NCBI GenBank assembly: GCA_030431455.1
Contig: JAUIJE010000002.1
Location: 193,294 to 257,293 of the forward strand
Source of the DNA: a bacterium
GTDB taxonomy: Bacteria; Myxococcota; UBA727; JAUIJE01
Direction of reading: 5' to 3'
DNA: 64,000 nt
The notes beneath the pieces were generated by a model, which saw only the letters and a list, made by a program, of their open reading frames with translations, ran no database searches and had not been told where the DNA came from. Each line of letters begins with the position of its first letter. Positions within the stretch are counted from its first letter, which is position 1. Of this stretch, positions 1,821 through 63,419 are shown piece by piece. The translations under genes were made by a program, and so were the position numbers.

Positions 1821-2002
1821 CGTGTCCCTCCCGGCAAATGTCCTGGGTTGCGGAAGACACTGCGCGAGGCGGGCCAACTTTCGTCGGTGACGTAAGATGC
1901 TGTTTTTATTGGATATTGTGAATCGTGGGCGGTTCCGGATTGATACAATGCGCTCGTATATTATCCAGCGAGATAGGCGATGCGCACGGTGCGGCCGCGG
2001 CC

Positions 2003-2047
2003 CCAAAAAAGGTGCGGGGGCCCGGCGACAAGCACCGGACCCCCGCT
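2003..2047 (-). terminator. Rho-independent terminator of the fasciclin gene
   Basis: On the minus strand a 12-bp GC stem GCGGGGGTCCGG/CCGGGCCCCCGC with a 9-nt loop is followed by ACCTTTTTTGG. It lies directly 3' of the stop at 2087. Confidence 0.6.
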
Positions 2048-3973: not shown

Positions 3974-4124
3974 CGCTTGTCACTCCATTGTTGTGCCAGC
4001 AGCGGCATTGTGTGACCGATGCCTCTTCGATCGATGTGGTGACAAGAATTGCGTGAACTGTGGATCGGCTTTTTTGTCCAGAAACGCAGTATGGGAGCGC
4101 GATCGGACCGGCTATACGCAGGGC

Positions 4125-5717
4125 ATGGCCACGGTGGCGTACGGCATGTTGGGCACGACCCTCGATCGCATGGGCGCGCGGCGTTGGGATCGCTGGCGCC
4201 CGACGGTGGGGCTGTGCCAACAAGACGACCTGCTCATCGACAAGCTGGTGCTGCTGCACCCCGCCCGGAGCAAACGCCTGGGACATGAGGTGCAGCAGGA
4301 CATCGCCACGGTGTCGCCCGAGACCTCCGTCGAGCTGGTCGAGCTGTCGTTTCGCAACCCCTGGGACTTTGAAGAGGTCTACGGCAAGCTCTACGCGTTC
4401 TTGCAGACCCAGACCTTCCGCCCCAGCCGCGACGACTACCTGGTGCACATCACCACCGGCACCCACGTGGCCCAGATCTGTTGGTTCTTGCTCACCGAGA
4501 GCCGCCACATCCCCGCGCGCTTGGTGCAGACCTCCCCGAGCAACCAAAAGGAGGACGTGGCCGGGCGCGCCGACGTCATCGACCTCGACCTCTCCAAGTA
4601 CGACGCCCTCTGGCGGCGCTTTGCCAAAGAGCGCGAAGATGCACTGACATTCCTCAAGTCCGGCATCGCCACCCGCAACGAAGCGTTCAACGCCCAGATC
4701 GAACAGATCGAGCGCGTGGCGCTCTCCTCCAAAGAGCCCATGCTGCTCATGGGCCCCACCGGGGCGGGCAAGTCGCACCTCGCCTCCCGCATCTACGAGC
4801 TGAAGAACACCCGCCACCAGACCTTCGGGGACTTCGTCGAGGTCAACTGCGCGACCCTGCGCGGGGACGGGGCGATGAGCGCGCTGTTTGGGCACAAAAA
4901 GGGCGCGTTCACCGGGGCGAGCACCGACCGGGCCGGCCTGCTCAAGAAGGCGGACAAGGGCCTGCTCTTCCTCGACGAAATCGGCGAGCTCGGTCTCGAC
5001 GAGCAGGCCATGTTGCTGCGCGCCCTCGAGGACAAACGGTTCTTGCCCCTGGGGGCGGACAAGGAAGTGGACAGCGACTTTCAGCTCATCGCCGGCACCA
5101 ACCGCGACCTGTCCGAGCGCGTGGCCGAGGGCGGCTTTCGCGACGACCTGCTCGCGCGCATCGACGTGTGGACCTTTCGCCTGCCCGGGCTGCGCGACCG
5201 CATCGAGGACCTCGAGCCCAACCTCGTGTTCGAGCTCGACCGGTTCGAGCAGCGCTACCGGGGGCGGGTCACGTTCAACAAGTCGGCCAAGGCGCGTTAC
5301 CTGTCGTTCGCCACGTCCCCGCACGCGACCTGGGCGGGCAACTTCCGCGACCTGAACAAGAGCGTCACCCGCATGGCCACCCTCGCCCAGGGAGGGCGCA
5401 TCGACGACGAGGTGGTGCAGGGCGAGATCGAACGGCTTGCGCAAAGCTGGGCCAAGACCACGCCGCTGTCCGACGCACAGAAGTTCGCCCGGGACCTGCT
5501 CGGGGACGAGGCCTGGGCCGACATCGACCCGTTTGACCAGCCCCAGCTGGCCCACGCGGTGTTCGTGTGCCGGCAGGCCAAGAGCTTGTCCGAGGCGGGG
5601 CGCACCCTGTTCGCGGTGTCGCGGCAAAAGCGGCGCTCGACCAACGACGCGGACCGGCTGCGCAAATACCTCGCCCGGTTCGGCCTCAGCTATTCACAGA
5701 TTCAGGAGGCCTCGTGA
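4125..5717 (+). CDS. rtcR: Sigma54-dependent transcriptional regulator RtcR, with an N-terminal CARF-like sensor, an AAA+ sigma54 activator domain and a C-terminal HTH
   Basis: 531 aa that are colinear with E. coli RtcR from the N-terminus (MATVAYGMLGTTLDRMG...WRPTVGLCQQ...) through the Walker A motif GPTGAGKS and the GAFTGA loop to the C-terminal RLRKYLARFGL. The upstream 254 codons of the ORF-track call are antisense to the fasciclin gene and are rejected. Confidence 0.92.
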   Translation: MATVAYGMLGTTLDRMGARRWDRWRPTVGLCQQDDLLIDKLVLLHPARSKRLGHEVQQDIATVSPETSVELVELSFRNPWDFEEVYGKLYAFLQTQTFRPSRDDYLVHITTGTHVAQICWFLLTESRHIPARLVQTSPSNQKEDVAGRADVIDLDLSKYDALWRRFAKEREDALTFLKSGIATRNEAFNAQIEQIERVALSSKEPMLLMGPTGAGKSHLASRIYELKNTRHQTFGDFVEVNCATLRGDGAMSALFGHKKGAFTGASTDRAGLLKKADKGLLFLDEIGELGLDEQAMLLRALEDKRFLPLGADKEVDSDFQLIAGTNRDLSERVAEGGFRDDLLARIDVWTFRLPGLRDRIEDLEPNLVFELDRFEQRYRGRVTFNKSAKARYLSFATSPHATWAGNFRDLNKSVTRMATLAQGGRIDDEVVQGEIERLAQSWAKTTPLSDAQKFARDLLGDEAWADIDPFDQPQLAHAVFVCRQAKSLSEAGRTLFAVSRQKRRSTNDADRLRKYLARFGLSYSQIQEAS

Positions 5718-6571
5718 GCCCCGCCCCGCTGACGGTACAAGGCGTGGCCCGGTTGCGGGCCTGGGACCACGGGGGCGAGGGCCTGCCCCTGGTGCTTTTC
5801 CTACACGGCTTTTTGGACACCGGGCGCAGCTTCGACGACGTGTGCGCGCCCCTGTTGGGCCGGGCGCGGTGCGTGGCCCTCGATTGGCGCGGGCACGGGC
5901 AGAGCCAGATGGCGGGCCCGGGGGCGAGCTTTCATCTGCTCGACCACGTCAAGGACCTGACCTTGGCCCTCGAAGACCTCGAGGACCGCTTTGGGAAGTT
6001 GGCCCTGCTGGTCGGGCACTCCCTGGGCGGCAACACCGCGCTGCTCTATGCAGGGGCATTGCCAGACCGGGTGCCGCGGCTGTTGCTCCTCGATGCGCTG
6101 GGGCCGCCGGCCGAGGACCCGAGCGAACAGCCCGAACGGTTGGGCCACATGCTCGCCTTGCTGTCCGCCAAAAAACCGTTCGCCGTGGTGGCGGACAAGG
6201 ACGAAGCCATCGCCCGGCTGATGCGCAACAACCGCGGCCTGACCGCGACCGGGGCCGAACGCATGGTGCGCCACGCGTTGGTGCCACGAGAGGACGGCGG
6301 CTGGGCATTCCCGTTCGCGCGGGACCTGCGGGGGCCGAACCCGGTGCGCCACCCCGAGGAGATGTGGCTCACCCTGTGCGCGCGGGTCACCGCACGCACC
6401 GTCGTCGTGCGCGCCACGAATGGGTACGTGCCCGAGGGCGATCCCATTCCCGGCCGCATCGCCGCGTTGGGCGCGACGATGTTGACCTGGGACGCGCCCC
6501 ATCACGTGCACGTCGAGCAGCCGGACAATGTCGCCCAGCTGATCGGTACGATGCTCGACGCCGGCGCGTAA
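5714..6571 (+). CDS. Alpha/beta-hydrolase fold protein
   Basis: It contains the nucleophile-elbow motif GHSLGG and an HGF oxyanion motif. The GTG start overlaps the rtcR stop (GTGA) and follows the RBS AGGAGG, which indicates translational coupling with rtcR. Confidence 0.8.
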   Translation: MSPAPLTVQGVARLRAWDHGGEGLPLVLFLHGFLDTGRSFDDVCAPLLGRARCVALDWRGHGQSQMAGPGASFHLLDHVKDLTLALEDLEDRFGKLALLVGHSLGGNTALLYAGALPDRVPRLLLLDALGPPAEDPSEQPERLGHMLALLSAKKPFAVVADKDEAIARLMRNNRGLTATGAERMVRHALVPREDGGWAFPFARDLRGPNPVRHPEEMWLTLCARVTARTVVVRATNGYVPEGDPIPGRIAALGATMLTWDAPHHVHVEQPDNVAQLIGTMLDAGA

Positions 6572-6908
6572 CAGATCTTCACACGACGTCGTGCACGACG
6601 GTCAAACGACCGACGTGGGCTGCGCCACTGCACTGTGCACACGTTTTTTGTCGCGGGTGTTCGCGGGTGTGCGTTTTTCTGACGATCGGTGAGTGTGCCC
6701 ACCGTCGTCGATCATTCACGCTTCTGGTTCGATTCGTTGTTCGTCACAAATCTGTGCGGCGCACACCCCGCAACCTGGATCAAATCCACCGCACGCGGTC
6801 GGGCAAAACGTCTCAGGTGTGTCCGGGGGGAAACACTTTTGTCTCATGACACATCAAAAATCCGTCGGTCCGGTCTCGATCGCGGATGCGGACGCAGGCC
6901 CGCGGGGC

Positions 6909-6925
6909 TGGCACAGCCCGTGCTT
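6909..6925 (+). promoter_or_regulatory. Sigma54 (RpoN) promoter with -24/-12 elements
   Basis: The sequence is TGGCACAGCCCGTGCTT. GG sits at 6910..6911 and GC at 6922..6923, which gives the canonical 12-nt spacing and matches TGGCAC-N5-TTGCW at the conserved positions. It lies ~45 bp upstream of a small ORF that has a strong RBS. Confidence 0.55.
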
Positions 6926-6968: not shown

Positions 6969-7091
6969 ATGCGCAACTCTGAAAAGGTCAAAAACCTCAA
7001 GCAACCTGAGGACCTTCTCGAGGCGTATCAATGGTTGGCCTCGCACCTCGGGCTCGGCCAGGTCAAAAAGCCCGCCGCGGTCCGCGGCTGA
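6969..7091 (+). CDS. Small 40-aa protein (MRNSEKVKNLKQPEDLLEAYQWLASHLGLGQVKKPAAVRG)
   Basis: The RBS GGGAGG lies 8 nt upstream of the ATG. The gene sits between the sigma54 promoter and the FHA-EBP gene. Its local GC is lower than its surroundings. Confidence 0.4.
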   Translation: MRNSEKVKNLKQPEDLLEAYQWLASHLGLGQVKKPAAVRG

Positions 7092-7141: not shown

Positions 7142-8554
7142 ATGCCTGTCGCGGTGAGCCGCGGCACCCTCGCCAACCTACGAGGCACCATCGTCACCGA
7201 CCACGCGTCGGGGACCCCGGTGGTGCGCACCTACCGCTTGGTGGTGAGCGACGGCCCGGACCAGGGCAAAGAGCACGTGCTCGAGCTCGGCACCACCTTG
7301 GTGGGCAGCCATCCCTCGACGGACTTTGTGCTCACCGACCCGCGGGTGTCGCGCCGGCACTGCGAGCTGCGGGTGGTCGCCGACGGTGTCCAGGTTCGGG
7401 ACCTGGGCAGCAAAAACGGCATCTTCGTCGGCCGGGTCAAGGTCGAGCAAGCGGTGTTGCTCCCCGGGGCCAAGCTGCGGCTCGGCGACACCAAAATCGC
7501 GGTGCACAACCTCGACGCGTCGGTGGAGGTGGGAGACCTCGCCACCTTCGGCGACCTGCGCACCGAGAGCCCGGCGATGAAATCGGTGTTCGGCCTTCTG
7601 TCCCGGGCCTCGACCTCGGACGCGACCATTCTCCTCGAGGGCGAGACGGGGGTGGGCAAGGACGTGCTCGCGCGCACCATCCACGCGCAGAGCCACCGGG
7701 CCAAAGGGCCGCTGGTGGTGTTCGACTGCAGCGCGGTGTCCGAGTCGCTGATCGCGGGGGAGCTGTTTGGGCACAAAAAGGGCGCGTTCACCGGGGCGAC
7801 CACCGACCGGGCGGGGGTGTTCGAGGAGGCCGCGGGGGGTACGGTGTTCCTCGACGAGGTGGGCGAGCTCAGCCTCGACCTTCAGCCAATGCTGTTGCGT
7901 GCCCTGGAGAACCGCCAGGTGCGCCGGGTGGGCGAAGCCAAGAGCCGGGACATCGACGTGCGGGTGGTGGCGGCCACCAACCGGGACCTGATGGCCGAGG
8001 TCAAAGCCGGGCGGTTTCGCCAGGACCTCTTTTACCGGCTCGCCATCGTCAAGGTCTCGGTCCCGCCCTTGCGGGAGCGCAAGGCGGACCTGCCCTTGTT
8101 GGCCAAGGTGCTGCTCGAGCGGCTCGGCCTGTCCGGCGACGTGCTCACCCGGTCGGACATGCGCGCGCTCACCGCCTACGACTGGCCCGGCAACGTGCGC
8201 GAGCTCAAGAACATGCTCGAACAGTCCATGGCCTTGTCCGACGAGCACGAGTTCGTGCTCCTCGGTCCCCGGGGGGCGAACGAGCCGGGCCCGCCCACCG
8301 CCGTCGACGAGGACGGTGACGACGACGATTTTGGTGAGGGCGAAAACACCATGACCGGGGTGGGCGGCCCCCTCGACGTCAAAAAGCCTTACAAAGAGGC
8401 CCGCGAAGATGTGCTCCGCTCGTTCGAGCAGCGCTACATCGAGTCGTTGCTCAAGGCCCACGACGGCAATGTGTCGGCCGCGGCCCGGGCCGCGGGCATC
8501 GACCGCAATTACGTCTACCGGCTGATGAAGCGGTTCGGCATCGAAAAGCCCTGA
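7142..8554 (+). CDS. Sigma54-dependent transcriptional activator with an N-terminal FHA domain
   Basis: It has an FHA domain (CELRVVADGVQVRDLGSKNGIFVG), an AAA+ domain (GETGVGKD, GAFTGA, the ESELFGH-like ELFGHKKG) and a C-terminal Fis-type HTH. Confidence 0.9.
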   Translation: MPVAVSRGTLANLRGTIVTDHASGTPVVRTYRLVVSDGPDQGKEHVLELGTTLVGSHPSTDFVLTDPRVSRRHCELRVVADGVQVRDLGSKNGIFVGRVKVEQAVLLPGAKLRLGDTKIAVHNLDASVEVGDLATFGDLRTESPAMKSVFGLLSRASTSDATILLEGETGVGKDVLARTIHAQSHRAKGPLVVFDCSAVSESLIAGELFGHKKGAFTGATTDRAGVFEEAAGGTVFLDEVGELSLDLQPMLLRALENRQVRRVGEAKSRDIDVRVVAATNRDLMAEVKAGRFRQDLFYRLAIVKVSVPPLRERKADLPLLAKVLLERLGLSGDVLTRSDMRALTAYDWPGNVRELKNMLEQSMALSDEHEFVLLGPRGANEPGPPTAVDEDGDDDDFGEGENTMTGVGGPLDVKKPYKEAREDVLRSFEQRYIESLLKAHDGNVSAAARAAGIDRNYVYRLMKRFGIEKP

Positions 8555-8650
8555 CCGCCCTCGGGTCGAGTGTGCGCTGAGTCGCCAAACGACAGACCAA
8601 AATCAGGCGCGTTCACAGTCTTTCATGTCGCGGCGCGCTAGGGTCACGTC

Positions 8651-10036
8651 ATGAGTGGGCTCGCCGACTACGCCATCCAACGCCGCCTGGGCCAGGGCGG
8701 CATGGCGGAGATTTTTCTCGCCCACAAGCGCGGCATGCAAGGGTTTCAAAAGCCGGTGGTGCTCAAGCGCATCCTCCCGCACCTCGCCGAGGACCCGGCC
8801 TGGGTCGAGATGTTCCTCGACGAAGCCCGCATCGCCGCCGGCCTCAACCACCCCCACATCCCACAGATCTTCGAGCTCGGCGCCGAGCGCGGCGAGTACT
8901 TCATCGTGATGGAGTACATCGAGGGGCACGACCTCGACACCATCCTCGCGCGCCACGAGACGCGGGGCACCTGGCCCACCATCGGCCAGGCCCTCACCGT
9001 GGTGCTCGGGGTGGCCGAGGCCCTCGAGTACGCCCACGGCCGGCGGGGCCCCGACGGCAAGCGCATCGGCTTGGTGCACCGGGACGTCAGCCCGCACAAC
9101 ATCATGATCAGCGTCGAAGGCGCGGTGAAGCTCATCGATTTCGGCATCGCCAAATCGAAGCAGAAGGTGGTGCAGACCGACGAGGGGTCGTTCAAGGGGA
9201 AGATGGAGTACGCCGCCCCCGAACAGGTGGAGGGCGAGGAGGTCGACCGACGCGCGGACCTGTGGTCGCTGGGCGCGGTCTTGTTCGAGCTGCTGTACCA
9301 GCGCGCTGCCTATCCACAAAAAGGCATCGTGCCGCGCATGACCGCGATGAAGTCCGGGACCTGGCGCGACGAGATCCCCCCCGAGGCCCTGGCCCAGACC
9401 GCGCCCGCCCTGATGAGCGTGCTGGAGCATTGTCTCGCCCCCCGGCGCGAAGACCGCTACCCCCGCGCCCGGGACGTGATCAAGGCCCTGCACCGTCACC
9501 TCGACGACATCCGCGCCCGGGTGCCCGCGATCGAGCTCGGCCGGGCGGTGCGTGAGCTGTTCGTCGACGGCACCGAGGCCCACGTGGCCCCCGAGAGCTA
9601 CGCGACCATGAGCGCCCAAGGCGAACCCGTGGCCGGCTCGTACTCGACGATGGGCCATCCCGTGCGCGCGCCGTTCGAGGATGCGCTGGGCACCCAAAAG
9701 CTGCGCCCGCCGGGCCGGACCCAAGTGGACGCGGACCCCATTCACTCGATGGCCACCGAGCTCGCCGAGGACGAGAGCGACCTCACCACCGGGCCGAGCC
9801 GGGGCGCGATCCCCGCCCTCTATGGCTTGCACAGTTTTCCCGACGAACAGACCGACCCGCGCAACCTGACGCCCTGGGATGAGCAGACCGGCTTTTTGCC
9901 CGAACCCAATCCGGTTGCAGACGCGGACGCGATGCGCACGCGGGCCCTTCCCGTCCGCCCCCGCCGTGCCCCACCCCAACCGGAAAAAGAGGCGGACCAC
10001 GACGGGGACGAAGGAAAAGACCCCAAAAGCGAATAG
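8651..10036 (+). CDS. Hanks-type serine/threonine protein kinase
   Basis: It has the kinase motifs GQGGMAEIF, VLK, HRDVSPHN and DFGIAK, an APE motif, and a disordered acidic C-terminal tail. Confidence 0.9.
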   Translation: MSGLADYAIQRRLGQGGMAEIFLAHKRGMQGFQKPVVLKRILPHLAEDPAWVEMFLDEARIAAGLNHPHIPQIFELGAERGEYFIVMEYIEGHDLDTILARHETRGTWPTIGQALTVVLGVAEALEYAHGRRGPDGKRIGLVHRDVSPHNIMISVEGAVKLIDFGIAKSKQKVVQTDEGSFKGKMEYAAPEQVEGEEVDRRADLWSLGAVLFELLYQRAAYPQKGIVPRMTAMKSGTWRDEIPPEALAQTAPALMSVLEHCLAPRREDRYPRARDVIKALHRHLDDIRARVPAIELGRAVRELFVDGTEAHVAPESYATMSAQGEPVAGSYSTMGHPVRAPFEDALGTQKLRPPGRTQVDADPIHSMATELAEDESDLTTGPSRGAIPALYGLHSFPDEQTDPRNLTPWDEQTGFLPEPNPVADADAMRTRALPVRPRRAPPQPEKEADHDGDEGKDPKSE

Positions 10037-10067: not shown

Positions 10068-10481
10068 TCACCGGGCGCCGGACGACGCGCTTTCAGGATT
10101 GTCCACATTGTTCACGGGTGGCTGGGGACGCGGCCGCCGCGCGGCCATGGTGCCCGCCCCGGCGAGGCCGGCGAGAACTTGTCCCATGAGATCGTCGGGC
10201 ACCGTGCTCCGGAGGTCCCGCTCCGGGGCCCCCGCCTGCGCGCGCATGCTCGTGTGGCGCGGGTCGCGGGCCCCGGTGATGTCCCGCGCACGTTGGGCCG
10301 CGGCCCGGTCGACGCCGTTTTTGTCAAACCCGTCGACAAACTCCATGCCCCGGTTGGTTCCCGTGCCCACCGCGCCGAGCGGTTCTTTGGGGCCGGTGGG
10401 GGCTTCGGGCTTGCGGCCTTGGTGGCGGCGGTTGAGCCCGGGGTGGTGGCGAAGGGCGGCGGCGGATGTCTTGGCGTGCAT
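10068..10481 (-). CDS. Hypothetical basic, disordered protein
   Basis: It is a 137-aa ORF in the same orientation as the upstream trigger-factor-like gene and 76 bp downstream of it. The RBS is weak and the start codon is uncertain. Confidence 0.35.
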   Translation of the reverse strand: MHAKTSAAALRHHPGLNRRHQGRKPEAPTGPKEPLGAVGTGTNRGMEFVDGFDKNGVDRAAAQRARDITGARDPRHTSMRAQAGAPERDLRSTVPDDLMGQVLAGLAGAGTMAARRPRPQPPVNNVDNPESASSGAR

Positions 10482-10557: not shown

Positions 10558-11670
10558 CTAGACGAACTGCACCGCGACGCGTTCGAGCACGGCTTCGAGC
10601 GCACGCTGCCGGGTGGCGGCGGTGAGCAGCGTCCTCTTTTGGCTCTCGAGGTGCTGCAGGGCCTGGTCTTGCGCGGTGGGGGCGAGGTCGGTGACCGCCA
10701 ACGCCTTGCGCAGGTTGTCGAACATGTCGTGGGTGGTGACCTGGAGGGACAAGCTCCCCGCCACCGCGTCGAGGAACCGACCGCAGAACGCGCGGTAGGT
10801 GGCCTCTTGCCGCATGTGGGGGTCGGCGAAGAACTGGTCGCGCAGGCGGGCGATCTGGTCGTCGGGCGCGCCGGCGCAGACCCATTCCGCGGCGTGCGCT
10901 TGCCACATATCGCGTAGGCTCTCGCGCACCGCGGTCTCGGGCACGGGGATGACCCGGCGCTGCTGCAACTTGCGCAGGACCTTCTCCTCGGCCTCGCGGA
11001 CCATGGCTTGGCCCATGCCGAGCTTGAGCTCTTCGGCGATGGCGGCGTCGACCTCGTCCGCGGTGTGGCCGTAGCCGAGCGCGGCGAACAGCCCCGCGGG
11101 GTCGCGGGCGATGACTTCCTTGGCCGCGTGCACGCAGACCACGAACACCGCGGTCTTGCCCGCCAGGCGCAGCGAGGGGTGAGAGGTGCCGAAGGTCACG
11201 GGCACGGACAGCTGCTGGCCGATCTTGCTGCCGGCGATGCCTTCGAACAGGCCGGGGAGCTCTTCGTGGGGCGTGGCCGTGAGCCACACGCCCCGGCGGG
11301 CGGAGACGAGCTCGCCGGATTCGTAGCCCACGCAGTCGACGAGGATTTCGTCACCCAACGCCACGGTCTCTTCTTCGGTGCGGGTGCGGGTCTCCGCGTA
11401 GGCGCTGAGCAGCTCGCGCTTTCTGCGTTCGACCTCGGCGGGCCCGATGGCTCCCCGGGCCCGGACCCGCACAGCGACATTGTCGAGCAGGCGGAGGTCG
11501 AGGGCGGGGGCAGCACCGGCGGCCGACCCTGGCGTGGCCAGGGCGAGGTCCCGGGCGCGGGGGGTCGTCGAGGTGGGCCGCGGGGTGTGGGCGGTGCGTT
11601 GCGCGATGCGGCGGGGACGGGGGGCGCCGGCTTTTTTCGACGCGCGGGGGGTGGTGGTGCGGATGCCCAT
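10558..11670 (-). CDS. Trigger-factor-like protein with an FKBP-type PPIase domain and the trigger factor C-terminal domain. It lacks the ribosome-binding N-domain.
   Basis: The segment GDEILVDCVGYESGELV...LPGLFEGIAGSKIGQQLSVPVTF matches the trigger factor PPIase domain. The N-terminus is a basic Pro/Arg-rich segment instead. Confidence 0.7.
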   Translation of the reverse strand: MGIRTTTPRASKKAGAPRPRRIAQRTAHTPRPTSTTPRARDLALATPGSAAGAAPALDLRLLDNVAVRVRARGAIGPAEVERRKRELLSAYAETRTRTEEETVALGDEILVDCVGYESGELVSARRGVWLTATPHEELPGLFEGIAGSKIGQQLSVPVTFGTSHPSLRLAGKTAVFVVCVHAAKEVIARDPAGLFAALGYGHTADEVDAAIAEELKLGMGQAMVREAEEKVLRKLQQRRVIPVPETAVRESLRDMWQAHAAEWVCAGAPDDQIARLRDQFFADPHMRQEATYRAFCGRFLDAVAGSLSLQVTTHDMFDNLRKALAVTDLAPTAQDQALQHLESQKRTLLTAATRQRALEAVLERVAVQFV

Positions 11671-11759: not shown

Positions 11760-12572
11760 CTACTTGATGTTGCGGATGGCGCCCATCGCGCTTTGGTGCA
11801 TGGTCGAGAGCACGTTGGAGAGGGTCTGCATCATCTGGGAGATTTTGTTCATCTCCTGTTTGATCTTCTCGAACTGAAGTTGGCGGCTGTCGGGACCTTC
11901 GCCCCCGGCGGTGGACCCGGTGCCGCCCGCGGCTTGGCCGGTGGTGCCGCCGGTCGACCCAGTGCCATTGCCCCCGGTGGTCGCGCCGGTGCTGCCGCTG
12001 CCGTTGGCGGGCCCGCTCTCCATCTGACGAATGCTCTGCTCGACCTCTTGTTCCATGTTGCTGATCATCTTCATCATGAACGCGGCGAGGATGTCTTCGA
12101 AGAACATGCCGCCCCCCGACTTGCCGCCGAGCAACGAGGGCAGCGAGCCCGCGCCGAACTGACCGGGGTTGGCGCTGCGCATCTGACCGGTCATCGGGCG
12201 CGCCACGTCGAGGGGATCATTGCCGAGCGAACGGTCCGCGCTCGACGACGCCAAGGGCGACATCGGCGCGCTTTGCATCTCGCCGTTCGGAGGTTGCGGT
12301 TTGTTGGCTTGGACCTCGGACAACGCCTGGGCCACCGCGTTCATGGCTTTGGCTTTGGCCCCTTCGATCATGGCTTTGACCGAGTCGCTGGCGCCGCCTT
12401 GGATGTCTTCGAGCTTCTCGATCTTTTGGAAGACGTCTTTGAGCTCTTTGGTGAGGCTCTGCATCACCGACTGGGCTTTGCCGATGTCTTTGGCGTCGGC
12501 CTTGATGTCCTGCAGCGCGTTCTTGAAGAGGTCGAAGTTGAAGTTCTGGGCGGCGGGGCTGGAAACGTTCAT
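11760..12572 (-). CDS. Hypothetical protein rich in Gln, Met, Lys and Gly, with coiled-coil character
   Basis: 270 aa with clearly lower GC and Lys-rich codon use than its neighbours. The amino-acid composition is diverse, unlike the antisense artefact ORF at 11682..12680. Confidence 0.7.
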   Translation of the reverse strand: MNVSSPAAQNFNFDLFKNALQDIKADAKDIGKAQSVMQSLTKELKDVFQKIEKLEDIQGGASDSVKAMIEGAKAKAMNAVAQALSEVQANKPQPPNGEMQSAPMSPLASSSADRSLGNDPLDVARPMTGQMRSANPGQFGAGSLPSLLGGKSGGGMFFEDILAAFMMKMISNMEQEVEQSIRQMESGPANGSGSTGATTGGNGTGSTGGTTGQAAGGTGSTAGGEGPDSRQLQFEKIKQEMNKISQMMQTLSNVLSTMHQSAMGAIRNIK

Positions 12573-12732
12573 CGGAGACTCCGTGTGTGGTGTGAATGTG
12601 TCTGCATGGTGGGCAGTCGCATTCGGTGTTCGCAGTTCTATGAAGCGAGCGGCGTGCCAACCCTGGCGATCGCGCCGTGATGCGCGGTCTGCGCGACCGG
12701 CGCGGACCGGAGTGCGGACCTGGGATCAAAAC

Positions 12733-12785
12733 GCGGACCGGAGGTCCGCACCGCTGTCCGCGCAGGTTGCGGACCCCGGGTCCGC
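12733..12785. promoter_or_regulatory. Two 17-bp inverted repeats GCGGACC-N3-GGTCCGC, forming a candidate enhancer/UAS cluster
   Basis: Perfect palindromes lie at 12733..12749 and 12769..12785. Extra GCGGACC half-sites lie at 12702 and 12714. The centres are 59 and 95 bp upstream of the sigma54 -24 element. Confidence 0.45.
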
Positions 12786-12834
12786 AGGCGGCCGCGCCCC
12801 ATCGTAAGTAGTTGTTTTTATTCAACAAAGCTCC

Positions 12835-12850
12835 TGGCACGAGCCCTGCG
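12835..12850 (+). promoter_or_regulatory. Sigma54 (RpoN) promoter
   Basis: The sequence is TGGCACGAGCCCTGCG, with GG at 12836..12837 and GC at 12848..12849 at the canonical spacing. It is followed by a 23-codon mini-ORF (12888..12959) and then the lipoprotein gene at 12987. Confidence 0.55.
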
Positions 12851-12986
12851 TAAGAAAGGTGCGTCACCACACCGAAAGGCCCCGGCCATGACCACCCAGA
12901 CCCGCACCCGCCGTCAAAAGCCCAAGACCACCGCCGCCTATCTCCCGGTCGTGTTCTGAACCGTCGCGCCCGGAAAGGATCCCCCG

Positions 12987-13823
12987 ATGCCCCGGTCTTT
13001 CTCTCGTTCATTGTTGTCCGCGTTCGTGCCCACGGCTTGTGCATGGGCATTGTCCGCTTGTCCCGTGGCCGGCGACGCCTGCCTCGCAGACGAGAACTGT
13101 CCTTTCGACCAAGTGTGCGTCGACGCCATCTGTGAATGGCCGATGCCGGGACAAGGCCTCGGAGGCCCCGGGGATAAGCCCCCGGTCCGCCGCGACGACG
13201 CGGGCGTGGTTCTCGCCGACGCCGGGTTCGACGGCACCGAGGACGCTGGTCGACCCGCGGACGCAGGGCCCGGCGCGCCCGACGCCCACGTCGCGACCGC
13301 CGACGCGGGGGCGCACACCCTCGACGCGGCCGAGCCCGAGGCCGACGACGCGGGGGCGCCCGATGCGGCCGGGAACGGACTGGACGCCGGCGCGCCCGAT
13401 GCCGTCGTCGTCGAGCCCGAGCCAGAACCAGAGCCAGACCCGGTCCCGGTGTGCGGCGACGTGTGGGAGCCGCCCCCCGCGAACTGTCCCGCGGCGTGCA
13501 CCGGCGGCTGCGCGGACGGGGTCTGCCACGTGGACTGCAGCGGAACCGGCTTGCTGTTCGGCTGCGTCAACGCCGACATCACCTGTCCCGAGGGCATGCC
13601 CTGCGACGTGCAATGCACCGGCTGGGGCGCGTGCAAGAACGTGCACGTCGATTGCGCCGACAGCGCCCCCTGTTCGATCACCTGCGCGGGCCAGTCCTCC
13701 CAATGTGACGACGCCAGGTTCCACTGTGGGGACAACCAATGTCACATCCAAGCCGAGCCCACGCTGTTCGGCCAGGAAGTTGACTGCAACGACTCTTGCG
13801 ACTGCCAGTACGAGGAGCTGTGA
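12987..13823 (+). CDS. Cys-rich secreted lipoprotein
   Basis: It has a signal peptide with a lipobox (LSAC), a Pro/Glu/Ala-rich linker (PEPEPEPDP) and a Cys-rich C-terminal domain. The RBS AAAGGA precedes the start. Confidence 0.75.
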   Translation: MPRSFSRSLLSAFVPTACAWALSACPVAGDACLADENCPFDQVCVDAICEWPMPGQGLGGPGDKPPVRRDDAGVVLADAGFDGTEDAGRPADAGPGAPDAHVATADAGAHTLDAAEPEADDAGAPDAAGNGLDAGAPDAVVVEPEPEPEPDPVPVCGDVWEPPPANCPAACTGGCADGVCHVDCSGTGLLFGCVNADITCPEGMPCDVQCTGWGACKNVHVDCADSAPCSITCAGQSSQCDDARFHCGDNQCHIQAEPTLFGQEVDCNDSCDCQYEEL

Positions 13824-14905
13824 TGCGACACGCCATCGACCGCGCGTGGTCCTATTTGGTGGGCCACCATTTCGACCAGGCCGAGGGCCTGCTCCACAAA
13901 CAGAACGAGCGCGATCCGCTCACCCAATGTCTCTTGGCCCGCCTCGAGATCGCCCGGCGCCAGACGCCGTCCGCCCTCGAGACCCTCAAGATGCTCACCC
14001 AGTCCAACCCGGACAACGTCGAGGTGCACGTCCATCTCGCCGCGGGCTTGTTCGCCATGGGCCACCGCAAGGCCGCCACCGAACAAGCCGAGCACGCCCT
14101 GCACCACGGCGCCCGCCACGCCGACCTCGAGGTCGTGCTCGGGGCCGACGCGCTCCGGCTCGGCGACGTCGACGAGGCCCTGGCCTGCTACGACGCCGCC
14201 CTCGGGCAATGCCCCACCTATGTCGCGGCCTGGCTCGGCAAAGCCCGCGCCCTCACGCACACCGGCGCGGTGGGCGACGCCGAAGCCGCGTACTTCCGCG
14301 TGGTCGAGCTCGCCCCCCAGGACCCCACCGCCTGGCGCGAGCTCATCCGCCTCGAGCTCAACTACGGCGCGCACGACGCCGCGCGCCAGAACTTCGAGGC
14401 CGCGCGCGGCTTTTTGCGCCGTCCAGAGGTGCTCGACGAGTTCGCACCCCATTTCGTGGCCGACGACGAGCCCGCCGAAGACGCATTTTGGGAAGAGCTG
14501 AACGATCTCTTGTCCAGCGCCGAGAAGAGACCCGCCGCGGTCATCGAGCAGGTCTTCGCCCAGCTCTCCACCAAATGGCGCGACGACGAGCGCTTCGCCG
14601 CGGTCCGCGCCGCCACCGCGCTCTTGTTGTCACAACCCGCGCAGATGACGCGTTCGATCCACGCCTTGACCCAGCTGGTCAAAGACAAGCAACACCGCCG
14701 CTGGCAAACGCTCTGGCTGCTCGGGGCCTTGCAGCTCTCGGACACCCCGCTGTTCCACCCGCACCTGGCCGTGACCTACCTCGAGGAGGCGGTGAAGATG
14801 GCGTACGACAACCGGCTGGTGGTCGAGACCCTGCAGGACGGCTATCGCCGCGCCGGCCGCGAGCGACTGGCCGAGGCGTTGACCGAGCGGGTGCGCGCGT
14901 TGTGA
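13823..14905 (+). CDS. TPR-repeat protein
   Basis: It is overlap-coupled to the upstream gene by an ATGA stop/start and contains several TPR-like helical repeats. Confidence 0.8.
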   Translation: MRHAIDRAWSYLVGHHFDQAEGLLHKQNERDPLTQCLLARLEIARRQTPSALETLKMLTQSNPDNVEVHVHLAAGLFAMGHRKAATEQAEHALHHGARHADLEVVLGADALRLGDVDEALACYDAALGQCPTYVAAWLGKARALTHTGAVGDAEAAYFRVVELAPQDPTAWRELIRLELNYGAHDAARQNFEAARGFLRRPEVLDEFAPHFVADDEPAEDAFWEELNDLLSSAEKRPAAVIEQVFAQLSTKWRDDERFAAVRAATALLLSQPAQMTRSIHALTQLVKDKQHRRWQTLWLLGALQLSDTPLFHPHLAVTYLEEAVKMAYDNRLVVETLQDGYRRAGRERLAEALTERVRAL

Positions 14906-15059
14906 TGTGGGTGGTCGTCGTTGAGGGCTCGCGGTTCGAGCTCGATGTGCTCGATGAGGTGCCCACGCTGCTCCCCGTGCGCCGGCCGCGCGAGGAGGAG
15001 GACAGGGGGAAGATGACGAAGTGGATGAGGATGAGGTGGATGGGGAATAGCGGCGGGTG

Positions 15060-15680
15060 TGGGCGGGGACGATAACGAACGCTCGCGTCGGTGAGGTTCG
15101 CGAAGGTTTGCCGCGTCGACGTTGGGCTTGCGTGCTCGTGTGCGGCGGCGCTGACGCTCGGTTGCGGTGGTGTTGCTCGTGCGGTTTTGTGTGCGAGGGA
15201 TGCGACGACGAGGGCGCGCGACGGGTGAGGTGCGAAGGCTCGCTGCCGGGTCTTGGCACGAGGGGGACTCGGTTTGCTCTTCGCGCGCTTCGCGTGCGAA
15301 GAAGCGATCGTGGGCGTTGTGACGGGTGAGTCGACGAGGTTCGCTGCGGGTTTATTGGATCGAGTTGGGGTCGCGTCCCTCGTGCGCTTTTGCGCGCGAG
15401 GAGATGAAGCTAGGCGACGAGGTTCGCTGCGGCTTCGATTGTCGAGATCGGGACCGCATCTCTCGCGCGCTTTTGCGCGCGAGAGATGCGGTCGACGGGG
15501 TTCGCTGCGGATTCGATGTGTCGAGATGGGGCGTCAACCTCGCGCGCATTTGCGCGCGAGGAGATGAAGCTAGGCGGCGAGGTTGGCTGCGGTTTCGATA
15601 GGGCGAGCTCGGGACCGAAACCCTCGCGCGCTTTTGCGCGCGAGGAAAAACGCCACCCGCGCATCGCGCGGGTGACATTT
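15060..15680. repeat. Tandem array of ~85-bp units, each containing a strong GC hairpin with a TTTT loop
   Basis: At least five copies of CTCGCGCGC-TTTT-GCGCGCGAG are present, including a 15-bp perfect stem at 15456..15489. The spacers share the motif GAGGTTCGCTGCGGNTTCGAT. The array sits between convergent genes. Confidence 0.7.
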
Positions 15681-15684
15681 GTGG

Positions 15685-18600
15685 CTAGTCAGCGCCCCAG
15701 CAGGCGACCTCGCCGTTGAATCTGAGTCCGCATGTGTGATGGGCGCCGGCCGCGACGTCCTTGAACGGACCCGGCGGAGAGTCGTTTTCGCCGTACCTCG
15801 CTTCGGCAGAGCCCCAGCATTCAATTTCGTTGTTGACTCTGAGGCCGCAGTGCCGGGATGCCCCGACCGCTCCCACGACTTTTTTGAATGCGCCAGGCGG
15901 GGAGTACGTTGAAGAGGCAGAGGCGCCCTGAAAACACTTCACTGTGTTGTTGGGCAGTGTGCCACAGACCACCAATCCCACGGTCGCTACCTTGACAAAG
16001 GGCCCTTCGGACGCGGGCACGTATGAGGGGACGTACGGCGACACCCCTCCCCAACAGACGATGGCGCCGTCAAACTCGTGCACCGCGCAACCCACGCCCG
16101 AGGCAACGCTGACATCATCGTAGATGAGGTCGGGCGGTCCCCCTCCCGAAGTCCAGCCTTTGCATTCCAACGTGCCGTCGTTTCGCAACGCGCAGGCGCC
16201 GAAATCGGAGGCAGCCAACTTCGTCACTCCGCCGGCGGCGCTGAACGGAGGGAGCGTCTTGCCCCAGCATTCGACCCCGTTTCCACGGTATCCGCAGGTG
16301 CGATTCGCGCTAATCGCCAATTGGTAGTAGCTGAGCCACGGCGCGGGACCTCCGTAGCCGGGGTCGGCCCCCCAACACCGAACGGTTCCGTCCGTTGTGA
16401 TCCCACACGTCCGGCTGCCCGCGGCTTCAATTGAGCGAAACCGGACCGGGGGCGGGCTGGACTGTCCTGCGATCACATCGTTCCAACAGACCAACCGGCC
16501 AGTTGTTCCCGGGGCACGGGCGCACGCGAGCCCTGCCCCCACTCGCGGCCCGTAGAGCCGCTCGTCGGGGACGTTCTTCTCAATGCCCGTTTTCGTACGC
16601 CCCCAACACGTGATCGACCCCTGGTCGTTCGTCGCACATCCCTTCTCTTCACGAAACGCGAAATCGATAAACGTTCCTGCTGGAGCAGACAAACTCGGCG
16701 CCGTGAACGGGCCCCAACAGGCAACGTTTCCGTCCACGGTGAGACCGCACTGGTGCTCATCACTGGTGTCTAGGCTAACGATTGTGGTGTTTGGCCACTC
16801 CCCAGCGAAGTCGGCGGCGCCTGGACCCCAACACTCCCAAAGTCCTTGGGAGAGGCCACAAACGTGGTTCGGGCCCGCGTCCAGATCCATAAACAGTGTT
16901 GTTGGTGCGTAGTCGATAACGCCCCAACAGGTCGTGGTCCCGTCGAGCGCGAGTGAGCAGGTGTACCGGTCGCCCGCTACAAGTCGGCCGTTGAGGTCAG
17001 GTGGCGGCGAGGCCTGACCCTCGTTGTCCGCTCCCCAGCAGTGGACTTCCCCGGCAACGTCGTTTCCACAGAAATGCCCCATGCCCGTCACGATTGATGT
17101 CAGGTAGATCGTGGATAGCTCTGGGAAGTACTGCACATAGGCTGATTCACCCCAATACATGCAAATTGGCTGTCCGTTGACCAGCGTGCAAACTCGCTCG
17201 CCTCTGACATCAAAGCTTGAAAATCCTTCGCACCCGTCGTTGTTTGGACAACACATGGGTCCGTTCGGCCCCTCGATACACAGACCACCATCGGTGCAAG
17301 GGTTTGGAGCGCAGCTTTCGAGTTTACAAGCAGCACTGCACCCATCGCCGTCAACAAGGTTTCCGTCGTCACATTGTTCTAGTCCCGCCTCGACGCCATC
17401 ACCGCAGTTTTCGACGACGCATGTGTCACTGCACCCGTCGCCGGAGGTGGTGTTTCCATCGTCACAGGACTCCAGAACGTTGTTTACAATCCCGTCGCCG
17501 CAGAACTCTATTTTACAGGTGGGGCCGCAACCGTCGTTTGGAAGGTCGTTTCCATCGTCACACTCCTCACCAGGGTTGCCAATCTCGTTGCCACAGAACT
17601 CGACGGTGCAGGTAGAGCTGCACCCGTCCACGGATACGGTGTTTCCGTCATCGCACTCTTCAGACACGTTGTTGGTGATGCCGTCGCCGCAGTATTCAAT
17701 CACACACGAAGCCGAGCACCCGTCTCCGTTCACGAGGTTGCCGTCATCACAACCTTCGGGTGAACTTAGAACGCCGTCGCCGCAGCCTTCGACCAAGCAC
17801 TCCGATGAACACCCATCGCCGTTGGTCGCATTTCCATCGTCGCAAACCTCTGCGCCCCCGTCGTTGAGGAGGCCATCCCCACAAACCTCCGCCTGACAAC
17901 TCGCATCGCAACCGTCACCAGAGATGGTGTTGCCATCGTCACATTCTTCTTCCGTGTTGTTCACGACCTCATCGCCGCAGAACTCAATTTTGCAGACGGC
18001 GCTGCAACCGTACCCACCCCAGAAGGAAGCATCGTCGCATTCTTCGTTGCGGTCGTTCGTGATCCCGTCGCCACAGAACTCGATTACGCAGTCTTCGGCG
18101 CAACCGTCACCAGACAGTGTGTTTCCGTCATCGCATCCTTCGCCGTTGTTCTTGACGCCATCTCCACAGAACTCAACAGCACAGTTGAAGCATCCATCTC
18201 CCGGGGCCGTGTTTCCATCATCGCAAGCCTCTCCGTTTTGGATGACCCCGTCACCACAAACGGCGGTTTCGATGCCGCAGCTGCTGCTGCAACCGTCCCC
18301 ATCCAACGCGTTCCCGTCGTCGCACGCCTCAGTTCCGCCGTTGTTCACAACACCATCGCCACAGAACTCCACAACGCAGGTTGAATCACAACCGTCCCCA
18401 GCAACAACATTGCCGTCATCACAAGCTTCGGTCCCGCCGTTGTTCACAACGCCGTCCCCGCAGTACTCCGTCACGCACAGCTCATCGCAACCATCGCCTG
18501 GGACCGCATTTCCATCATCACAGGTCTCCGTCGCGTTGTTGACTTCACCATCTCCACAGAACTCGATGACACAGATGTCACTGCAGCCGTCGTTGGCGAT

Positions 18601-21600
18601 CGCGTTGCCATCGTCACACTGCTCGCCGACGTTGTTGACCAGACCGTCGCCGCAATACTCCACCACACAAGTGGACGCGCAACCGTCGCCGTCCTGAGCG
18701 TTGCCATCGTCACAGACTTCCCCGTTGTTCACGACGCCGTCGCCACAGAACTCGACCACGCAGGCCGCACTGCACCCGTCACCGTTCATGGCGTTCCCGT
18801 CGTCGCAGCCTTCTCCGTTGTTGACGATCCCGTCGCCACACACTTCGAGTCCGCACGTAGCGGAACAACCATCGCCGCTCACCGTGTTCCCATCATCACA
18901 GGCCTCAGCACCCGAGTTGTTCACCACCCCGTCACCACAGACCTCAACTACGCAAGCAGCCGTACAACCGTCGCCGCTCACCGTGTTCCCGTCGTCACAG
19001 GCCTCAGCACCCGAGTTGTTCACAACCCCGTCGCCGCAAACCTCGACCACGCAGGTCGCAGTACAACCGTCGCCGCTCACCGTGTTCCCGTCGTCACAGC
19101 CTTCGCCGTTGTTCACCGCGCCGTCACCACAGAACTCCACCTCACAAGCGGCGCTGCAACCGTCCCCCGAAACCACGTTGCCGTCGTCACAGCCTTCGCC
19201 GTTATTGACGACGCCGTCGCCACACACTTCAAGCCCACACCCTGCCGAACAGCCGTCACCGCTCACCGTGTTTCCGTCGTCGCAAGCCTCGGCACCAGAG
19301 TTGTTCACAACCCCGTCGCCACAGACCTCGACCGCACAAGCAGCCGTACAACCATCACCGTTGGCGGTGTTCCCGTCGTCACAGGCCTCACCATTGTTGA
19401 CCGTGCCGTCACCGCAGAACTCGACCACACAGGCAGCGCTGCAGCCGTCGCCCGAGACCACGTTTCCGTCATCACAGCCTTCACCGTTGTTCACGATCCC
19501 ATCGCCACACACTTCGAGCACGCAGGCTGCCGAACAACCATCGCCGCTCACCGCGTTCCCGTCATCGCAGGCCTCAGAGCCCGAGTTGTTCACAACCCCG
19601 TCACCACAGACCTCGACCACACATGCCGCGGTACATCCATCACCGTTCGTGCTGTTCCCGTCGTCACAAGCCTCGGTACCGGAGTTGTTCACAACCCCAT
19701 CGCCACAGACCTCGATGACGCACGCGGCAGTACAGCCGTCACCGCCTACCGTGTTGCCGTCATCACAAGCCTCAGCACCGGAGTTATTCACAGCCCCGTC
19801 GCCACAGACCTCGACCACGCACGTAGCCGTACAACCATCGCCGCTCACCGCGTTCCCGTCATCGCAGGCCTCACCATTGTTGACCGTGCCGTCACCGCAG
19901 AACTCAACCACACACGCCGCGCTGCAGCCATCGCCGCTCACCGTGTTCCCGTCGTCGCAGCCTTCGCCATTGTTGACCGTGCCGTCACCACAGAACTCAG
20001 AAACGCAGGAAGCGCTGCAACCGTCACCTGAAACAACGTTGCCGTCGTCACAACCCTCGCCGTTGTTCACGACCCCATCGCCGCACACTTCGAGCGCACA
20101 CGTTGCCGAGCAACCGTCCCCGTTCACCGTGTTCCCGTCGTCACAGCCTTCGCCGTTGTTCACCGCGCCGTCACCACAGAACTCCACCTCACAAGCGGCG
20201 CTGCAACCGTCCCCCGAAACCACGTTGCCGTCGTCGCAACCTTCACCGTTGTTCACGACCCCATCGCCACACACCTCTAGCGCACATGCAGCGGAGCATC
20301 CGTCGCCGTTCGCGACGTTCCCATCGTCGCAAGCCTCATTGCCAGAGTTGTTCACAACCCCATCGCCACAAACCTCGATGACGCACGCGGCAGTACAGCC
20401 GTCGCCGCTCACCGTGTTCCCGTCGTCACAGCCCTCACCGTTGTTCACAACCCCATCGCCACACACCTCGAGCGCACAGGTCGGTGAACAGCCATCGCCG
20501 CTGACCGTGTTTCCGTCGTCACAGGCTTCGGCACCTGCGTTGTTCACAACCCCGTCGCCACACACCTCTAGCGCACATGCAGCGGAGCATCCGTCGCCGT
20601 TCGCGACGTTCCCGTCGTCGCAAGCCTCATTGCCAGAGTTGTTCACAACCCCATCGCCACAAGCCTCGATGACGCACGCGGCAGTACAGCCATCGCCACT
20701 CACCGTGTTCCCGTCGTCGCAGGCCTCGGCACCAGAGTTATTCACAACCCCGTCGCCACAAACCTCGACCACACAAGCAGCCGTACAACCATCGCCGCTC
20801 ACCGTGTTCCCGTCGTCGCAGGCCTCACCATTGTTGACCGTTCCATCACCGCAGAACTCCGAAACGCAGGAAGCGCTGCAGCCGTCACCTGAAACCACGT
20901 TTCCGTCGTCACAGCCCTCACCGTTGTTCACAATCCCATCGCCGCACACTTCAAGCGCGCACGTCGCTGAACAGCCGTCACCGTTCGCGGTATTTCCGTC
21001 GTCGCAAGCCTCAGCACCAGAGTTATTCACAGCCCCGTCGCCGCAAACCTCCAGCACACACGCCGCCGTACAACCATCACCGCTCACCGTGTTCCCGTCA
21101 TCGCAGGCCTCGCCATTGTTGACCGTTCCATCACCGCAGAACTCCGAAACGCAGGAATCGCTGCAACCGTCGCCGGAAACCACATTTCCGTCGTCGCAAC
21201 CCTCACCGTTGTTCACAACCCCGTCGCCACAAACCTCGACCACACACGAAGCGCTGCAACCATCGCCGCTCACCGTGTTCCCGTCATCGCACGCTTCCCC
21301 GTTGTTCACCGCGCCGTCGCCGCAGAACTCGACCAAACACGCCGTGCTGCAACCGTCGCCTGAAACAACGTTCCCATCATCACAGCCTTCGCCGTTGTTC
21401 ACGATGCCATCGCCGCACACTTCGAGCGCACACGTCGCCGAGCAACCGTCCCCGCTCACCGTGTTCCCGTCGTCGCACGCTTCGCCGTTGTTCACCGCGC
21501 CGTCGCCACAAAACTCGACCACACAGGCCGCGCTGCAGCCGTCGCCCGAGACAACGTTCCCGTCGTCACAGCCTTCGCCGTTGTTGACGATCCCATCGCC

Positions 21601-63287: not shown

Positions 63288-63419
63288 GCCACCGCGAAAT
63301 CCACGCGATCGCGCCGGTTTTCTGAGACCGGGCCCGGGGGCCGGGCGCTTGGCGCCGGGCGCGAGCGGCTGGCACCGGGCTTGCGTTCGGACCGGGACAA
63401 ACAACCAGGAGTTTGTCCA

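Follow-up and report, generated by a model that had tools for sequence, protein, structure and literature searches.

The closest described analogue of the region analysed here is the ZraR system of E. coli and Salmonella, in which a single activator, working from a shared intergenic region, controls zraP and zraSR through their divergent sigma54 promoters (PMC4987338). The region in question is a 414-bp gap separating divergent genes in a 64,000-nucleotide stretch of Myxococcota DNA (GenBank assembly GCA_030431455.1, contig JAUIJE010000002.1, positions 193,294 to 257,293; hereafter the window). It contains a cluster of GCGGACC-N3-GGTCCGC palindromes and half-sites, enclosed by two outward-facing matches to the sigma54 promoter, termed P+ and P- after the strand on which they lie. 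As in the ZraR system, a divergent sigma54 pair is present and one arm encodes an envelope protein. The further parallel, that the other arm encodes the activator together with a kinase and thereby gives autoregulation, applies only to L083, a locus encoding a relative of the candidate activator. As a response regulator, ZraR receives its phosphate from a histidine kinase, whereas the candidate activator in the window carries an FHA sensory domain and has a serine/threonine (Ser/Thr) kinase as its partner. In addition, the DNA motif is unrelated to that of ZraR, and neither arm in the window encodes the activator, because the operon appears to have been split and the activator gene has its own promoter at 6909.

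A second comparison is offered by NtrC at glnAp2. The NtrC site is TGCACCA-N3-TGGTGCA, and the outermost TGC...GCA of the window palindrome resembles it. Both arrangements have two strong dyad sites plus weaker ones ~80-150 bp upstream of a -24/-12 element, and in both the activator has a Fis-type DNA-binding domain (HTH_8). They differ in the half-site sequence, in the length from outer T to outer A (19 bp here, 17 bp for NtrC), in the spacing of the site centres (36 bp vs ~32 bp), and in the regulatory domain and signal of the activator. FHA-domain activators reportedly form a recognised class in myxobacteria (Jelsbak et al. 2005, cited in PMC12288465). For Nla28 of Myxococcus xanthus, two to five short half-sites per sigma54 promoter have been described, and its own operon is autoregulated (PMC9765219). 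Several short half-sites per myxobacterial sigma54 promoter are likewise present in our case, but the Nla28 sites have the sequence CT(C/G)CG(C/G)AG in tandem, whereas GCGGACC is arranged in dyads. The architecture of a sigma54 promoter with an upstream dyad enhancer is textbook and not new. The value of the region lies in a sharply defined, testable motif for an uncharacterised clade of FHA activators; no published DNA site matching it was found, and the literature search gave only unrelated primer and construct sequences. Judged from the sequence and its relatives, we consider it reasonably probable that the 414-bp gap is a bidirectional sigma54 control region whose array would be bound by the FHA-domain activator of the window, with the operon split and the activity of the activator set by the adjacent kinase.

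The window has a GC content of 67.7% and holds only two perfect copies of the palindrome, both in this gap and 36 bp apart from start to start (Table 1). The symmetry of the second copy extends to 19 bp through an additional outer T/A pair (12768-12786, TGCGGACCccgGGTCCGCA). The centres of the two palindromes precede the TGGCAC of P+ by 58 and 94 bp, which confirms the position of ~60-95 bp upstream given in a preliminary description of this DNA. Measured from the predicted starts, the centres at -84/-120 for P+ and -108/-144 for P- fall within the range of ~80-150 bp upstream that is typical of enhancer dyads, so that the palindromes are located where an enhancer-binding protein would be expected to bind. 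The same description had listed two extra half-sites; these are exact copies of GCGGACC outside the palindromes (12702 and 12714), and two copies with one mismatch each, GGTCTGC at 12686 and TGTCCGC at 12755, can be added to them. A larger imperfect dyad of 37 nt is also present in the array (12685-12721 vs 12742-12778). The density of half-sites is 8 per 100 bp in the array as compared with 0.74 per 100 bp window-wide, i.e. ~11 times the background, and seven GCGGAC hexamers occur within 100 bp of the array, where 100 first-order Markov simulations gave a maximum of 2-4. Across the window as a whole, 36 half-sites were observed and 34.5 were expected. Hence, the half-site is not enriched overall, and the signal is the local cluster. 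When one or two mismatches were allowed, five palindrome matches were found in 64 kb, including both perfect ones, compared with 2.55 expected, and the other three thus occur at the chance rate.

These counts also bear on the idea that the cluster is a dispersed repeat, similar to repetitive extragenic palindromic sequences or miniature inverted-repeat transposable elements, or a set of chance GC-rich hairpins without a regulatory role. Transcription of each palindrome could indeed give a GC-rich hairpin of 7 bp. However, no further perfect copy exists in the 64 kb, none of the 100 simulations produced one, the flanking genes both diverge so that nothing needs terminating between them, and L083 has the same sequence at the corresponding place in its regulatory region. 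A repeat or chance origin is therefore hardly credible.

Promoters were scored on both strands against TGGCACG-N4-TTGCW over 12 positions with GG and GC fixed, and only six sites in the window reached at least 10/12. Two of these six border the cluster, each facing outward and each with a ribosome-binding site and then an ATG downstream. In both, GG and GC are exactly 10 bp apart in a TGGCAC-N5-TTGC-like context. The plus-strand promoter, which had been described before, is upheld by this score and spacing; its -24/-12 element lies 50 bp downstream of the array, and its predicted start is 126 nt from the ATG at 12987. The better-scoring minus-strand promoter, which serves the divergent gene, had been overlooked, as had the IHF-like, AT-rich spacer next to P+. 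From the predicted start of P- to the ATG at 12572 the distance is ~61 nt, and a GGAG ribosome-binding site is found 7 nt ahead of this ATG. Across 12400-13100, nothing resembling a sigma70 promoter was detected. Since the array is situated between two outward-facing sigma54 promoters, it would constitute a shared, bidirectional enhancer. The rpoN gene was not identified among the annotated open reading frames (ORFs) of the window, and the presence of sigma54 in the genome is implied by two window genes for activators of the GAFTGA type or with a sigma54-interaction domain.

The spacer between the array and P+ carries an IHF-like sequence on the minus strand (AAACAACTACTTA, 12805-12817) with one mismatch to WATCAANNNNTTR, one of nine such matches in the window. 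An IHF site or an intrinsic bend between enhancer and promoter is common, although not obligatory. The spacer probably bends the DNA that separates the enhancer from P+. L083 lacks this segment, which appears in the pairwise alignment as an insertion in the window.

Table 1. Coordinates of the features in the window, followed by sites in the loci of activator relatives (identity refers to the activator protein; mm, mismatch; UAS, upstream activating sequence; aa, amino acids).
Feature	Position	Strand	Sequence and remarks
Ro60/TROVE protein (Rsr)	246-2006	-	
Fasciclin protein	2087-3973	-	four-domain
RtcR	~4125-5717	+	sigma54-interaction domain
Hydrolase	5567-6571	+	
Activator's own sigma54 promoter	6909-6924	+	TGGCACAGCCCGTGCT
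40-aa ORF	6969-7091	+	MRNSEKVKNLKQPEDLLEAYQWLASHLGLGQVKKPAAVRG; strong GGGAGG ribosome-binding site; no family match; between 6909 promoter and activator gene
FHA-domain sigma54 activator	7142-8554	+	FHA, AAA+ with GAFTGA, HTH_8; recognition helix IDRNYVYRLMKR
Soluble Ser/Thr protein kinase	8651-10036	+	directly downstream of activator gene
137-aa protein	10068-10481	-	P- operon
Trigger-factor-like chaperone	10558-11670	-	P- operon
270-aa helical protein	11760-12572	-	first gene of P- operon; Gly/Ser/Thr-rich region; ATG at 12572
Control region	12573-12986		414-bp gap separating divergent genes
P-, sigma54 -24/-12 promoter	12659-12644	-	TGGCACGCCGCTCGCT; 11/12, top match in window; predicted start ~12633
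UAS array	12686-12785		eight GCGGACC/GGTCCGC half-sites: 12686 (-, 1 mm), 12702 (+), 12714 (+), 12733 (+), 12743 (-), 12755 (-, 1 mm), 12769 (+), 12779 (-)
Palindrome 1	12733-12749		GCGGACCGGAGGTCCGC = GCGGACCggaGGTCCGC; perfect 17-bp GCGGACC-N3-GGTCCGC; centre -120 from P+ start, -108 from P- start
Palindrome 2	12769-12785		GCGGACCCCGGGTCCGC; perfect, 17 bp; centre -84 from P+ start, -144 from P- start
Shared block	12785-12797		CAGGCGGCCGCGC; also in L083, where it directly abuts the -24 element (pairwise alignment)
AT-rich spacer, IHF-like	12800-12832		between array and P+; GC 27% (about 12800-12829)
P+, sigma54 -24/-12 promoter	12835-12850	+	TGGCACGAGCCCTGCG (12835-12849 = TGGCACGAGCCCTGC); 10/12; predicted start ~12861
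23-codon ORF	12888-12959	+	MTTQTRTRRQKPKTTAAYLPVVF*; in 126-nt leader of P+
Cys-rich lipoprotein	12987-13823	+	first gene of P+ operon; lipobox LSAC
TPR protein	13823-14905	+	P+ operon; start overlaps lipoprotein stop (TGATG)
56-aa ORF	14905-15075	+	after TPR gene
L083 (58% identity)	8635-8653		perfect TGCGGACCcggGGTCCGCA; degenerate copy 21 bp upstream
L084 (57% identity)	958		TGCGGACctccaGTGTGCA at 958; perfect variant palindrome TGTAGACttcggGTCTACA, same geometry, then AT-rich stretch and divergent sigma54 promoter
L087 (59% identity)			contig begins inside operon, promoter outside coverage
L089 (56% identity)			same recognition helix and operon order; no TGCGGAC-type site
L091-L094 (55% identity)	9911, 9947, 9926		TGCGGAC at 9911 and 9947 (36 bp apart), TGCTGAC at 9926; 225-bp gap before activator gene

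Apart from RtcR and the FHA protein, the large window ORFs that were tested included no sigma54 activator. The FHA protein has the build of the FHA subclass of enhancer-binding proteins, with an N-terminal FHA domain (domain score 1.4e-15), an AAA+ domain (Sigma54_activat, 1.3e-64) that includes Walker A (GETGVGK, residue 167), GAFTGA (214) and Walker B (DEVG, 238), and a C-terminal helix-turn-helix (HTH_8, 3.6e-07). Copies of the target operon were present in two Logan contigs (L001 and L002) identical to the window and in a 98% relative (L097) that stops short of the promoter. As the target operon had no diverged copies, the relatives of the activator were followed instead. In a collection with one genome per species, the best matches of the activator had 38-48% identity, came from Myxococcota and Polyangiaceae metagenome-assembled genomes, and were without the motif. 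The 80 loci with an FHA activator found in the genome collection showed neither the recognition helix, nor a perfect palindrome, nor orthologues of the target genes. A large protein collection contained closer relatives with 54-60% identity, and the recognition helix IDRNY[VLI]YRLM[KR][KR] was present in 6 of the 120 best homologues, namely the window protein, P0006, P0007, P0008, P0010 and P0011.

In some of these relatives, the DNA site accompanies this helix. The palindrome of L083 is identical to palindrome 2 of the window in all 16 specified bases and is flanked by two sigma54 promoters, TGGAACGAAGGTTGCT on the minus strand (8585) and TGGCACGCGGATTGC on the plus strand (8683), the latter heading an operon of lipoprotein, activator, 226-aa protein and kinase. 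Because the palindrome of L083 thus lies between divergent promoters, one of which heads the activator operon, this operon would be self-activating. Half-sites or a variant palindrome were found in L091-L094 and L084, and none in L089; the background of TGCGGAC in the high-GC loci is 0.17 per kb. In two loci with other recognition helices, L096 and L007, a divergent sigma54 promoter also adjoins the activator gene, together with different repeats. This pattern suggests that recognition helix and DNA site co-vary across the FHA activator family. The repeats of L096 (9812-10000) are two copies of TGGTGCCTG..GGCCCCACC, and that of L007 (9668-9750) is TGAGGGC-N4-GCCCTCA. The spacing of the strongest sites is 36 bp in both the window (12733/12769) and L091 (9911/9947), where the surrounding sequence is unrelated, and 21 bp in L083.

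The comparison makes the FHA-domain activator, and not RtcR, the likely binder of the array. The preliminary description had named both as candidates; the comparative evidence favours the former and nothing points to the latter. That the promoters and the enhancer are as described and the binder is RtcR, or an activator encoded outside the window, is unlikely. The rtcR gene lies only 7 kb away and encodes a sigma54-interaction domain, and for Salmonella the DNA site of RtcR is given as not known (PMC4987338). However, the gap upstream of rtcR (3974-4124) contains no GCGGACC palindrome, and L083, L084 and L091, which carry the motif or close variants beside the FHA activator gene, have no rtcR within 10 kb, as RtcR matched only the AAA+ domain of the FHA activator in tblastn searches. 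RtcR was hence rejected as the binder. An activator from elsewhere gains some support from L089, which has the recognition helix of the FHA activator but no motif, and from the fact that only 64 kb of the genome are visible; against it, no other activator turned up in the large window ORFs that were tested.

We also weighed a conventional, dimeric, non-AAA+ regulator of the divergent gene pair, for which the palindromes would be operators and the -24/-12 matches incidental or separately regulated. Perfect 7-N3-7 palindromes in divergent gaps are what many helix-turn-helix repressors typically use as well, and the sites in L091 and L084 are only 50-90 bp from the start codon, a more operator-like position. 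On the other hand, in the window as well as in L083 the array has a high-scoring sigma54 promoter on either side at enhancer distance, the vicinity shows no sigma70-like promoter, the graded match of the eight half-sites suits oligomer assembly, the motif tracks the recognition helix of the activator across loci, and no other regulator gene is common to these loci. We therefore regard the operator reading as distinctly improbable.

Gene order gives a further indication in favour of the FHA activator. Lipoprotein, FHA activator, TPR-like protein and kinase follow one another in L083, L084, L087 and L089, and the lipoproteins of these four loci are homologous, as are their TPR-like proteins. In all six loci of the clade outside the window (L083, L084, L086, L087, L089 and L091), a kinase gene lies downstream of the activator gene on the same strand, either next to it or with one gene in between. 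In the window, activator and kinase are under their own sigma54 promoter, lipoprotein and TPR protein are under the enhancer-equipped promoter, and the unrelated P- operon lies between them. The Cys-rich C-terminus of the window lipoprotein is weakly similar to L087 proteins encoded upstream of the activator (E = 4e-8), and the window TPR protein showed no detectable similarity to the TPR-like proteins of the relatives. Judging from this synteny, the window appears to carry a split version of an ancestral operon, with a lipoprotein/TPR half and an activator/kinase half, which supports a functional link between the targets of the array and the activator. The kinase is accordingly proposed as the upstream controller of the FHA activator.

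Under the proposed mechanism, dimers of the FHA activator, encoded 4.3 kb away, would bind the palindromes through their C-terminal Fis-type helix-turn-helix, and the weaker half-sites would aid the assembly of dimers into an active AAA+ ring. This ring would reach sigma54-RNA polymerase at P+ or P- through DNA looping, which the AT-rich segment may ease on the P+ side, and would open the promoter with ATP. The adjacent Ser/Thr kinase would set the activity of the activator via recognition of phospho-threonine by the FHA domain.

Several observations weigh against a bidirectional control region bound by the FHA activator. The -12 element of P- is TCGC instead of TTGC, and the 36-bp spacing places the two strong sites ~0.4 helical turn out of phase. 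The proteins of the P+ operon are near-orphans (the TPR protein had a single homologue, with 98% identity, among 5.8 billion proteins), so that the promoter itself has no diverged relatives for phylogenetic footprinting. Among the activator relatives, the L091 sites are direct repeats near the start codon instead of palindromes with a recognisable -24/-12 element downstream, L089 has neither a TGCGGAC-type site nor a good sigma54 promoter upstream of its operon, and the four loci have divergent genes that share no homology with one another. Finally, the source scan covered 64 kb, and another activator of the same specificity is possible elsewhere in the genome.

Taken with these points, the control region is genuine and well-formed, contains a strong candidate for an enhancer, and is a useful experimental handle rather than a surprise; its putative assignment to the FHA activator is credible from the sequence comparisons. 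More tentatively, TGCGGACC-N3-GGTCCGCA might be the site of an uncharacterised clade of FHA activators with the helix IDRNY[VLI]YRLM, which, together with a Ser/Thr kinase, a Cys-rich lipoprotein and a TPR protein, could form a self-activating envelope-signalling module of Myxococcota that has been split in the window, where the enhancer would fire two promoters. If true, a DNA site would be assigned to an FHA-domain enhancer-binding protein, and a compact model would be available of how Ser/Thr phosphorylation feeds into sigma54 transcription. The class is of interest as the meeting point of Ser/Thr-kinase signalling and sigma54 transcription in myxobacteria. The region is a compact bidirectional target with strong and weak sites, suited to footprinting and to studies of oligomer assembly, and it would link four genes of unknown function (lipoprotein, TPR protein, activator and kinase) into one putative signalling module.

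A metagenome scan for the palindrome together with the promoter, made in a collection that is a different subset and did not return L083, gave a single match (L090, metagenome contig Ga0316577_10072580). This was rejected as unrelated, since it is an rpoN gene with other sequence around it. In its positions 1-330, rpoN is preceded by a sigma54-type promoter (TGGCACGAATATTGCA), and upstream of it are three tandem GGGCGGACC-N3-GGTCCGCCC palindromes within ~47-bp direct repeats in an AT-rich context. The 14-base core equals that of the window, and the flanks and gene context differ; L090 may represent a convergent use of the same half-site.

The leader of P+ had been described as containing a mini-ORF. 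The ORF exists, but its length is at the chance level, the leader folds into less structure than its shuffled versions do, and no counterpart is present in L083. Ahead of the ORF, at a distance of 8 nt, is GAAAGG, which resembles a ribosome-binding site and nearly matches that of the lipoprotein gene, and the third position is G or C in 19 of its 22 codons (manual count), similar to the real genes of the window (0.83-0.93). Both features would fit an ORF that is translated and couples its translation to the expression of the lipoprotein operon. However, simple arithmetic for a 126-nt leader at 67% GC predicts ~1 ATG and gives a probability of ~0.6 for 22 stop-free codons, so that chance alone would be expected to yield such an ORF. 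The minimum free energy of the leader is -28.9 kcal/mol compared with a shuffle mean of -32.7 kcal/mol (z = +1.16; equalled or bettered by 180 of 200 shuffles). As regards attenuation, no stable or alternative structure was found in the leader and no terminator on the plus strand after the ORF; L083 has essentially no leader, and Rfam gave no family match in the window. The 23-codon ORF is thus probably not regulatory, and a coupling role is quite unlikely.

The activator's own promoter at 6909 is accompanied by three half-sites with one mismatch each, GGTCCGG (6867), GCGGACG (6888) and GGCCCGC (6897), which abut its -24 element. Half-sites had been said to flank this second promoter; the two in question, GGTCCG (6867) and GCGGAC (6888), both precede the promoter and are everted. 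The suggestion that one enhancer-binding protein controls both promoters depends on these three imperfect half-sites (6867-6903), which is at the edge of chance, with three in a 130-bp search space where ~1 is expected. As they are imperfect, they are weak evidence for shared control. If real, their position would speak, speculatively, for occlusion or negative autoregulation rather than for an enhancer role. Further upstream are a tandem direct repeat (two copies of TCGCGGGTGT, 6651-6670) and a palindrome (TGTCTCATGACACA, 6840-6853), which could be sites for another regulator.

Genes of the window were called from third-position GC and Pfam. The 270-aa protein that opens the P- operon has helical ends and a Gly/Ser/Thr-rich centre, and its only matches, to WXG100 and FlgM, were below threshold. 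In the trigger-factor paralogue encoded next to it, the model match begins at position 103 and leaves the N-terminal part uncovered. By sequence features, the pair looks like a secreted substrate and its chaperone.

In Salmonella, RtcR drives rsr-yrlBA-rtcBA (PMC4987338). The Ro60/TROVE and rtcR genes of the window are 2 kb apart, with the fasciclin gene between them. Neither rtcB nor rtcA was identified in the window, Rfam gave no Y RNA at the gathering threshold, and the gap upstream of rtcR contains no sigma54 site of at least 10/12.

A fourth good sigma54 match (TGGCACCGGGCTTGCG, 63370-63385, plus strand, 10/12) is located 28 bp ahead of an ORF that starts at 63413 and has a signal-peptide-like N-terminus. 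No GCGGACC motif was found near this promoter, which implies a different activator. Convergent with the lipoprotein/TPR operon is the gene for a 2444-aa protein (15685-23019, minus strand), which contains 41 Cys-rich DUF4215 repeats and an RCC1 repeat.

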